Positions 4,344 through 5,492 of a stretch of 14,611 nt of DNA are shown in pieces; position 1 is the first letter of the stretch; every line of letters begins with the position of its first letter. Below the pieces are notes generated by a model. The model made no database searches. It was not told the DNA's origin and was given only the letters and a program-made list of their open reading frames with translations. This stretch comes from Escherichia coli (GTDB lineage: Bacteria; Pseudomonadota; Gammaproteobacteria; Enterobacterales; Enterobacteriaceae). The stretch lies in assembly GCF_003334255.1 (NCBI RefSeq), contig NZ_QOWU01000079.1; one strand, given 5' to 3'. The position numbers were made by a program, and so were the translations under genes.

Positions 4344-4893
4344 GCATCATTGGAAAGTGGAAAAACAACCTGAGTGGTACGTGAAAGCTGTCAGAAAAAC
4401 TATCGCGGCATTGCCTGGGGGTTACGCTGAAGCTGCTGACTGGCTGGATGTAACAGAGAACGCTTTATTCAACCGCCTTCGTGCAGATGGCGATCAGATT
4501 TTCCCGCTGGGATGGGCAATGGTTTTACAGCGCGCGGCTGGCACTCACTACATTGCGGATGCTGTCGCACAATCTGCTGGTGGGGTGTTCGTATCGCTTC
4601 CTGAAATTGAGGAAGTAGAGAACGCCGATATAAACCAGCGCCTGCTGGAAGTCATCGAACAGATCGGGAATTACTCAAGGCAGATTCGTTCGGCAATCGA
4701 AGATGGGGTCGTGGAGCCACACGAGCAGACAGCAATTAATGATGAGTTGTATCTGTCAATTTCGAAGCTCCAGGAGCATGCAGCACTGGTCTACAAAATC
4801 TTTTGCGCTCCAGAAAAGAGTGACGCCCGCGAGTGTGCAGCTCCGGGCGTCGTGGCGTCGATTGCTTCTGGTTGTGGAGAAACTAACGCATGA
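4336..4893 (+). CDS. YdaT-family / CII-analogue regulatory protein (185 aa), tentative
   Basis: GTG start at 4336 with CAGGAGG 5 nt upstream, overlapping the cro stop; third gene of the switch, in the position of ydaT in Rac/CP-933P-type prophages. Family call rests on position and general resemblance only. Confidence 0.45.
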   Translation: MGKHHWKVEKQPEWYVKAVRKTIAALPGGYAEAADWLDVTENALFNRLRADGDQIFPLGWAMVLQRAAGTHYIADAVAQSAGGVFVSLPEIEEVENADINQRLLEVIEQIGNYSRQIRSAIEDGVVEPHEQTAINDELYLSISKLQEHAALVYKIFCAPEKSDARECAAPGVVASIASGCGETNA

Positions 4894-5038
4894 ACAGTTT
4901 AACGGCAAATAACCGTTTGTCGCAACAGCTGGTGGTCAGCGTCGCTGAACACCTGTTGTTACGGCATGAATGCAGATTACCAAATCACCTGGCTGTAAGT
5001 AACCACAGAGAACTTTACCTGACTGTGGGGGGCGAGTT

Positions 5039-5218
5039 GTGCAGGAACTTAACCGCTGGTTTCGTGACGGAAGAGGACTTTATGTTCATGTTATTCGTTG
5101 GGAGCCAGAAACACAGCGCGTTATCTATCTTCGCAAAGACTACCAGCATGAGTGCTTTAGTCCTTTGTGGAAATTCAGGCGTGATTTTGTTGAGTGTGAA
5201 GGACCACCAGCACATTGA
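5039..5218 (+). CDS. small prophage protein, DUF4222-like (59 aa); absent from the ORF track (under 60 aa)
   Basis: Found by hand-translating frame 2: VQELNRWFRDGRGLYVHVIRWEPETQRVIYLRKDYQHECFSPLWKFRRDFVECEGPPAH; GTG start with GGGGGG 6 nt upstream; FRDxRG...V.V...V.Y.R..Y.HEC..PL..F pattern recalled as typical of DUF4222 small prophage proteins. Confidence 0.4.
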   Translation: MQELNRWFRDGRGLYVHVIRWEPETQRVIYLRKDYQHECFSPLWKFRRDFVECEGPPAH

Positions 5219-5492
5219 TTCTGCCATTCCGGGACGTTACACTGTTCAGGCACCTTATAAAGCGGGTGTCGGGATTGGCGTCCTGGAATTGCATACGGCG
5301 ACAATTGGCGCGTTAGCGTCTTTTTTGTTGCTACAACTCAGCTATACCCAAATTATGGTGGGCTGGGTGGGGGCACCGAAAGGTGCGCCGGTTTCCGTAT
5401 GCGCCGGTTACGCCAACCCTGCTCAGTTCACCACCAGCGAAATTGGCGTTTCCGGTGGTGGAAGTTATCCATTGCATACGGAGGCTGCCATC

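Follow-up and report, generated by a model that had tools for sequence, protein, structure and literature searches.

The DNA analysed here is a stretch of 14,611 nt from Escherichia coli (contig NZ_QOWU01000079.1, assembly GCF_003334255.1; "the window"), which covers the immunity and early-right region of a lambdoid prophage of the e14/SfV/mEp460-like type. We investigated the 600 nt in front of rha, the gene of a Rha-family regulator. Region 5215-5492, directly before rha, is interpreted as an antisense-RNA immunity cassette of the type known from the satellite P4 and the phage P1, and the open frame crossing it as a read-through frame comparable to eta of P4. We estimate the probability of this interpretation at about 80%. 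The 600 nt are best explained as containing three things: a leader frame at the 5' end, coupled to ymfL and under weak constraint; a DUF4222 gene in a different frame; and the P4/P1-type isrK-C4 immunity cassette. The preliminary description of this locus had correctly observed an architecture that is already described; its mechanism is established for P4, P1 and Gifsy-1, and our results leave that understanding unchanged.

The cassette consists of an isrK-like leader RNA and, 25 nt further downstream, a C4 RNA, together with target elements on both sides of the latter. The following parts were found:

5250-5326, plus strand: isrK / P4 seqA-like leader RNA (Rfam RF01394, 58.9 bits at a gathering threshold of 50, full length)
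5275-5281, plus strand: target b1, TTGGCGT, in the loop of the second isrK hairpin
5291-5298, plus strand: target a1, GCATACGG, within the first copy of an 11-mer repeat
5307-5320 (stem) and 5321-5326 (T6), plus strand: intrinsic terminator of the isrK-like leader, from a terminator scan
5351-5438, plus strand: C4 / P4 CI-type antisense RNA (Rfam RF01695, 80.7 bits at a gathering threshold of 45, model positions 1-87 of 87)
5387-5391 (GCCGG) and 5404-5408 (CCGGT), plus strand: arms of the second C4 hairpin with loop 5392-5403, underlying the GCGCCGGTT repeat
5395-5402, plus strand: C4 loop element a', CCGTATGC, pairing with a1 and a2
5410-5416, plus strand: single-stranded C4 joint b', ACGCCAA, pairing with TTGGCGT of b1 and b2
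5443-5484, plus strand: downstream target region with b2 (TTGGCGT, 5443-5449), a2 (GCATACGG, 5474-5481, in the second 11-mer) and the rha Shine-Dalgarno sequence (SD) GGAGG (5480-5484)

The order of the elements in the window is b1-a1 / a'-b' / b2-a2, as in the c4 scheme of P1. The C4 loop carries CCGUAUGC (5395-5402), the exact complement of GCAUACGG, which is present in both 11-mers. Site a2 overlaps the SD of rha; the duplex between loop and a2 comprises 9 Watson-Crick pairs, and G-U pairs would extend it over all of GGAGG. The Rfam pair of isrK and C4 was present in all 15 relatives tested and in P4. Using 29 diverse homologues, 99.9% of the cells of the three-helix C4 structure were found paired, compared to 32-47% in slid controls, and 13 of the 27 pairs showed changes on both sides.

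The 11-mer ATTGCATACGG had been reported as an exact repeat, and exactly two copies were indeed found (5288-5298 and 5471-5481), with two copies in 0 of 200 shuffles. On sequence grounds, the two 11-mers are the C4 target sites a1 and a2. Protein-binding sites were considered and rejected, as the hairpin loop between the 11-mers is their exact complement and all three elements co-vary. Among the options put forward at the outset, a regulatory region with repeated binding sites came closest: the repeats appear functional, as RNA-RNA target sites of a C4/CI-type antisense RNA and not as sites for a protein. The second reported duplication, GCGCCGGTT, also exists in two copies, one base away from the positions given for it (correctly 5385-5393 and 5401-5409). 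Taken alone it is weakly significant (4 of 200 shuffles), and it arises from the two C4 hairpin arms because CCGG is palindromic.

In order to follow the loop and its targets through related elements, 80 related viral loci were collected, corresponding to 58 unique sequences. A further scan of viral contigs for the conserved SD-ATG motif brought the set, earlier loci included, to 79 unique cassettes; a C4 hairpin was recognisable in 74, and these have 31 distinct loops. Already among the close relatives 5-6 specificity types were distinguished, in which the loop octamer and both target sites change together. The types have the following pairs of target and loop:

target GCATACGG, loop CCGTATGC
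target GTCAACGG, loop CCGTTGAC
target CACCAAAG, loop CTTTGGTG
target GTTATCGG, loop CCGATAAC
target GACTACCG, loop CGGTAGTC

Using at least 8 contiguous Watson-Crick pairs as criterion, the loop matched its own site 2 in 65 and its own site 1 in 56 of the 74 cassettes, while foreign combinations of loop and site reached 8 bp in 0.1-0.2% of cases. The full 7-nt complement of the b' joint was found in the cassette's own downstream linker (b2) in 74/74 and in its own isrK-like part (b1) in 60/74 cases. Lack of conservation of the 11-mer had been named as an argument against its function. Its sequence indeed varies, but it changes in step with the antisense loop, which is the stronger evidence for function.

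Several further observations were made on the distribution of the cassette. Some relatives carry two tandem copies of cassette plus rha with differing antisense specificities (locus L009, about 2646-3530; locus L063, 2649-3521). In L063 the specificities are GACTACCG and then CAACATAG, and the ATG that begins the open frame of the second copy overlaps the first rha stop. The isrK-C4 cassette precedes varied Bro-network genes, encoding P22-like Ant, Bro-N, Rha or short Kil/Icd-like proteins, in Stx2a_F765, VT2-Sakai, phiV10 and Shiga toxin (Stx) phages, including locations in the nin region (Stx) and adjacent to the tail fibre (phiV10). Stand-alone copies of the cassette have near-consensus promoters and are found without the long open frame.

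The open reading frame (ORF) which crosses the cassette and the gene in which it ends are:

4890-6038, plus strand: long open frame (frame A), 382 codons, ATG start; it runs from its junction with ymfL through the DUF4222 gene and the RNA cassette, with Rha as its final part
5493-6038, plus strand: rha proper, 181 aa, Rha-family (Bro-network) regulator (Pfam Phage_pRha, TIGR02681; ratio of non-synonymous to synonymous differences, pN/pS, 0.12-0.31)

The stop-free run of 201 codons before ATG 5493 was present as reported: frame A is without stops over 603 nt, with 6-12 stops in each of the other five frames. A chance origin, likewise judged improbable before, was seen in 3 of 200,000 mononucleotide shuffles. 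Stops in frame A of related prophages had been considered as a sign of a non-coding frame. The frame was open in all 80 related loci and also in ST64B, sal3, cdtI, mEp460, SfV and Stx phages. For the 79 unique cassettes, stops were counted in the 81 codons upstream of the controlled ATG:

frame 0 (in phase with the ATG): stop-free in 74/79, mean of 0.11 stops per cassette
frame +1: stop-free in 9/79, mean of 1.94 stops per cassette
frame +2: stop-free in 0/79, mean of 3.66 stops per cassette

In the 74 fully stop-free cassettes the open run extends over 98-421 codons and at least 17 codons past the isrK 5' end; it therefore always passes the internal promoter proposed below. In the contexts examined its start adjoins the stop of the preceding gene, namely ymfL (ATGA), a DNA-binding gene in Stx1_699, the preceding rha copy in tandem arrays and ORF88 in P4. 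Stand-alone cassettes (F765, VT2-Sakai) carry stops in frame 0 or a short ORF ending in ATGA, so the RNA itself does not forbid stops.

Selection for the encoded peptide was analyzed by pN/pS (Nei-Gojobori) and by nucleotide diversity. In frame A the pN/pS was 0.29-0.48 for codons 1-49; it exceeded 1 where DUF4222 overlaps, was close to 1 in the cassette and lay at 0.12-0.31 in Rha. The values for 5220-5492 (0.66-1.2) were the same as those of the +1 and +2 frames. Diversity at codon positions 1/2/3 was as follows:

4890-5250: about 0.01-0.02, nearly invariant
5219-5492: 0.18/0.19/0.19, no third-position excess
5526-6038 (Rha): 0.09/0.07/0.19, the expected coding pattern

The codon-position check suggested with the preliminary description thus gave no third-position excess for 5219-5492, unlike Rha. 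Within 4890-5492 the only indels among the 58 unique relatives are those at 5444 and 5466, of 3 nt each. These data are best explained by selection on the absence of stops and not on the peptide, with the upstream frame acting as an eta-like read-through frame. An N-terminally extended Rha isoform, as first proposed, may exist in the sense of P4 eta/kil, as a read-through product of upstream transcripts only; the proposed extension is without selection at the amino-acid level. For codons 1-49, the comparison of the window with ST64B (few substitutions, one 6-nt indel) shows a constraint which, on sequence evidence, is compatible with translation from ATG 4890. As a separate observation, the 360 nt of 4890-5250 are nearly invariant in the 58 unique relatives, while ymfL and the cassette at either side vary 5-20 times more. 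Dual coding (frame A and DUF4222) together with a promoter, or a conserved module delimited by recombination, are possible reasons.

A candidate internal promoter was found at the position of PLE in P4:

5215-5243, plus strand: candidate internal promoter, -35 TTGATT (5215-5220), 17-nt spacer, -10 TACACT (5238-5243), positional homologue of P4 PLE

Its hexamers end 6 nt before the isrK 5' end, with a predicted transcript start at about 5250. The same geometry of hexamers and isrK was observed for P4 PLE (TTGCCT-17-TATAGT), F765 (TTGACT-17-TATATT), Sakai and others, and the promoter is proposed on this positional homology. According to the mechanism which we propose, transcripts would start at about 5250 from the PLE homologue, and their isrK/seqA-like leader would bring b1, a1 and the intrinsic terminator. 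Read-through transcripts would contain the C4/CI RNA, which may be processed out by analogy with P1, P4 and Gifsy-1. Its a' loop and b' joint would pair with b1-a1 upstream and b2-a2 downstream. As a2 overlaps the SD of rha, translation of rha would be blocked, and termination of transcription would follow as in P4 and P1. The long frame begins upstream of the internal promoter, at the ATG overlapping the ymfL stop, so that only transcripts of the early-right operon would be translatable in it. With ribosomes moving through the cassette, the RNA could not fold or pair with its targets and transcription would not terminate, so that rha and the downstream genes would be expressed regardless of immunity. 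For this prophage, RNA processing, rha repression, termination and translation of the long frame are thus proposed by analogy, and the immunity-insensitive read-through is deduced from the conserved openness of the frame.

The closest counterpart is P4. It shows the same two Rfam matches, with C4 at the position of the cI immunity gene, contains the target TTCACAGG twice and carries CCUGUGAA in the loop. A long P4 ORF (8812-8168), which matches the ORF called eta, runs from beside ORF88 through the whole cassette, and its final part is the 65-aa kil. For P4 it has been described that Kil is a truncated form, while translation of full-length Eta occurs solely on transcripts from the upstream late promoter and is coupled to an alpA homologue, that the CI and seqA sites lie within eta, as does a constitutive internal promoter, and that translation of eta prevents (Rho-dependent) termination and renders read-through insensitive to immunity (PMC10111431). 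Shared with the prophage, where the internal promoter is a candidate, is the order of internal promoter, isrK/seqA-like leader and its terminator, C4/CI RNA and a downstream target over the SD of the first gene. The SD-ATG context GGAGGCTGCCATCATGGCTAC is common to P4 kil and rha, and both elements have a long frame whose start, coupled to the preceding gene, lies upstream of the internal promoter and which is in phase with the controlled gene. In the prophage, however, the controlled gene encodes a 181-aa Rha-family regulator instead of the 65-aa Kil, the cassette is located in a lambdoid early-right operon after cro and ymfL and not in a satellite, the loop is CCGUAUGC and not CCUGUGAA, and 120 codons, including the overlapping DUF4222 gene, precede the cassette. 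The work of Forti et al. from 1999 on P4 eta/kil reportedly agrees with the account of eta as a read-through frame.

In the immI region of P1 and P7 the c4 antisense RNA controls icd-ant through a1b1, a'b' and a2b2. Its downstream target lies over the ribosome-binding site of the gene that opens the antirepressor operon, and heteroimmune relatives differ in specificity. The Rfam C4 family is common to P1 and the prophage, as is the complementarity of a and b elements on both sides of the RNA. In contrast to P1, rha itself would be the regulated gene and no separate icd is present, the leader is of the isrK terminator type, and the cassette lies inside a long open frame.

In the Gifsy-1 operon isrK-orf45-anrP, orf45 is translated with conservation of its nucleotides but not of its amino acids, and processing releases an RNA of about 80 nt (Hershko-Shalev et al., 2016; PMC4825925); in S. 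dysenteriae orf45 is fused to the antirepressor gene (PMC4825925). Common features are an isrK-family leader with its terminator, the C4-like RNA STnc1160 (processed, about 80 nt), an antirepressor gene immediately downstream and, at the 5' end of the C4 region, a conserved AUG which is the orf45 start and corresponds to ATG 5355 of the window. Differences exist as well. The orf45 of Gifsy-1 is a separate ORF of 45 codons whose stop overlaps the anrP AUG (AUGA), whereas the equivalent frame in the window is fused in phase to rha and 155 codons longer upstream; moreover, IsrK is read as a trans-activator there, not C4 as a repressor. ATG 5355-5357 at the C4 5' end, 46 codons upstream of rha and in phase with it, matches the first orf45 start codon of Gifsy-1 and is kept in 44 of 45 distinct C4 sequences. 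Initiation there would yield a second, shorter extended isoform of Rha.

Two further elements share the upstream part. The SfV orf37 is the same ymfL-coupled long ORF across the same DUF4222 and isrK-C4 segment; judged from the ORF length, the last part of its frame appears to be a short kil/icd-like gene (77 aa) and not rha. The ymfM gene of e14 likewise starts over the stop of ymfL, at the same position, and is overlapped in the same way by an out-of-frame DUF4222 ORF. It differs by having no alignable similarity outside MNSLT and the DUF4222 overlap, and by stopping 20 nt before the DUF4222 stop. In e14 no isrK-C4-rha cassette is present, and a replication gene follows DUF4222.

Several points weigh against our interpretation. 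We are aware of the fact that the 79 cassettes share both ancestry and the SD-ATG motif which served as search pattern, and they are consequently not independent samples; the difference between the frames is large all the same. The candidate promoter matches the consensus at 8 of 12 positions only, and a generic promoter scan of 4800-5600 called no promoter. Stops in frame 0 occurred in 5 of the 79 cassettes, making openness not obligatory, and a short upstream ORF ending in AUGA takes the place of the long frame in Gifsy-1 and Sakai. In view of the weak purifying selection on codons 1-49, the long product might be functional in itself. Finally, the precedents conflict, since the C4/CI RNA represses in P4 and P1, while the IsrK small RNA was reported as activator of orf45-anrP translation in Gifsy-1; for this reason direction and wiring of the regulation in the prophage are what we infer.

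Very unlikely, in our view, is an explanation of the extension or its 3' half as a real domain, according to which Ash and Rha form one protein of two domains, with 296 aa (PGAP, start at 5148) or 382 aa (mEp460), and the RNA matches merely fall into coding sequence. It draws on a match of Pfam Phage_ASH (PF10554) to residues 117-212 of the long ORF (window 5238-5525, E 9.4e-17), on the PHROG families 821, 995, 3960 and 6928 covering the extension, on the annotation by PGAP and in GenBank and on the frame being open in all relatives. The characterisation of the extension as low-complexity and hydrophobic was fair, but it is not featureless, having the Phage_ASH match in frame A and the DUF4222 match in another frame. 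Purifying selection on the Phage_ASH stretch as a protein was not found, as its frame-A pN/pS of 0.66-1.2 equals that of the out-of-frame controls and the three codon positions do not differ in diversity. The obsolete "cI protein" ORF of P4 (8168-8584, minus strand), which overlies the P4 C4 (CI RNA) match, also matches Phage_ASH; the "residues" with the highest variability correspond to the antisense loop and its targets, and these co-vary as RNA. The Rha domain, furthermore, begins 21 residues after ATG 5493 with its conserved GGAGG. Ash as a real N-terminal domain was rejected for the missing codon periodicity, the presence of isrK and C4 in this stretch, the control-like pN/pS and the match of the P4 "cI" ORF. 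Within these data, covering the window and P4 as the two sequences tested, the Ash match is the translated isrK-C4 RNA region, with no evidence of a folded domain.

A passive open frame is unlikely as well: the cassette would be real, and the frame an unselected and never translated by-product of RNA constraint and a conserved upstream segment. In its favour are the high G+C content and structural constraint of the cassette, the absence of stops from the +1 frame, too, in 9 of the 79 cassettes, and the near invariance of 4890-5250 among close relatives (0.01-0.02), which makes openness trivial within that set. Against it stand the 74 of 79 cassettes open in frame 0 versus 9 and 0 in the other frames, across 31 specificities, the frame-0 stops of the stand-alone F765 and Sakai cassettes, the 3-nt length of both cassette indels (5444, 5466) and at least 4 unrelated upstream contexts in which the open run reaches a start codon beside the stop of the previous gene. 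Eta of P4, in addition, was reported to be translated and needed for read-through (PMC10111431). We consider it extremely improbable that the extension is a recently fused or decaying ymfM-like gene which lost its stop and ran into rha. The 112-aa ymfM of e14 starts at the same ATGA junction, and residues 48-98 match PHROG 1170. The arrangement is old, however, with the same long ORF in Salmonella ST64B and sal3 (76-81% nucleotide identity) as well as in cdtI, mEp460 and SfV; e14 lacks the cassette and continues with a replication gene after DUF4222. Similarity to YmfM does not extend beyond the overlap with DUF4222, and there it is the DUF4222 frame that drives conservation of the DNA. A recently fused or decayed upstream gene, one of the options listed initially, is likewise at odds with the same open frame being kept in these elements, the Stx phages and P4.

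The small ORF inside the long one, also described before as a 59-aa ORF (5039-5218) overlapping it in a different frame, is present:

5039-5218, plus strand: DUF4222 gene, 59 aa, GTG start (Pfam PF13973, E 1.1e-13; phrog_1343, E 4e-36; PGAP), with a purine-rich SD, GGGGGG, about 7 nt upstream

In the DUF4222 frame the pN/pS was 0.13 versus ST64B and 0.31 versus K-12, compared to 3.4 and 1.6 for the same nucleotides in frame A. In the ST64B comparison 14 of 21 differences were located at third codon positions of DUF4222, and the start position was kept as GTG or TTG with an SD in ST64B, sal3 and K-12. Judged by this substitution pattern, the DUF4222 ORF is an independent, real protein-coding gene. 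The e14 ymfM of K-12 (112 aa) begins at this same junction with ymfL (ATGA), and a DUF4222 ORF without annotation overlaps it. This ORF has 59 aa (3502-3681 of the e14 locus; ymfM region 3323-3681), a TTG start and a GGAGA SD. Comparing K-12 and EC29, the pN/pS of the overlap was 0.06 in the DUF4222 frame versus 5.8 in the ymfM frame. In the non-overlapping 5' half of ymfM it was 0.44 in the ymfM frame and 1.06 and 1.70 in the other frames, and on the value of 0.44 the idea of ymfM as a purely spurious frame was rejected as too strong. In a K-12-like genome PGAP annotates DUF4222 in place of ymfM. Full-length similarity of the long ORF to K-12 YmfM was not found, with residues 48-98 as the only match to PHROG 1170 (112 aa), and alignment of the 5' part to K-12 requires indels whose lengths are not multiples of 3. 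The ymfM preprint assigns filamentation to ymfM cloned in pBAD24 and does not mention frame-specific mutants or sequence analysis; such a clone would hold all but the last 6 codons of DUF4222. It is a speculation that the SOS-inducible division inhibition of e14 assigned to ymfM may stem from the nested, better conserved DUF4222 ORF. The overlap of ymfM with a more strongly constrained gene bears on the reading of the work on the e14 division inhibitor.

Concerning the surroundings, query 4890-5530 (641 bases) showed 100% identity to strain MS7163, and segment 4300-6300 was 98.8% identical to several chromosomes. The gene order comprises a cI-like repressor gene (minus strand), a cro-like gene (4083-4343), ymfL, the long ORF, small ORFs and replication genes. 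Upstream of the long frame lies:

4336-4893, plus strand: ymfL, cII-like regulator (NCBIfam NF041471, 169.9 bits; PGAP call in a near-identical genome)

The ATG of the long ORF and the ymfL stop codon share bases in ATGA (4890-4893). Pfam Phage_pRha (PF09669) matches residues 222-307 of the long ORF (E 3.2e-30), and TIGR02681 matches Rha with 101.1 bits at a cut-off of 45.95. With GGAGG at 5480-5484 and the domain beginning 21 residues past it, ATG 5493 is the start of the functional Rha, as had been supposed. Rha is probably an antirepressor, and its gene would be under control of the cassette. Public annotation of the locus is contradictory: all 383 codons are called Rha in mEp460; PGAP gives DUF4222 and a 296-aa Rha with start at 5148 in a near-identical genome; the equivalent orf37 of SfV is annotated as "immunity region"; and other genomes label it "ash family protein", a name which PGAP places beside Icd-like genes in many E. 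coli genomes. Farther downstream in the prophage the small RNA STnc100 was found at 12336-12541 (plus strand; Rfam RF02076, full length, 143.2 bits versus a threshold of 47).

The analysis settles the conflicting annotation of a very common prophage locus of E. coli and Shigella (382-aa Rha, 296-aa Rha, "ash family protein", "immunity region"), whose functional units are two small RNAs with their targets, the 181-aa Rha and the 59-aa DUF4222 protein. Phage_ASH and the product names derived from it, in these data the translation of a structured-RNA region, can mislead domain-based prediction of function. The more than 30 co-varying specificities of loop and target are a ready-made resource for heteroimmunity and cross-talk among prophages and satellites. 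We see an even chance that a stop-free frame across isrK-C4 is a general, selected property of the cassette in lambdoid early operons and P4. In this case rha would have two forms, a short one from the internal promoter which is silenced by C4, and a long read-through form of 382 aa made only from early-right (PR) transcripts, the translation of which would override RNA immunity. The Pfam "Ash" family, the "ash family proteins" and the "Ash-Rha" fusions would then be a by-product of the read-through frame.

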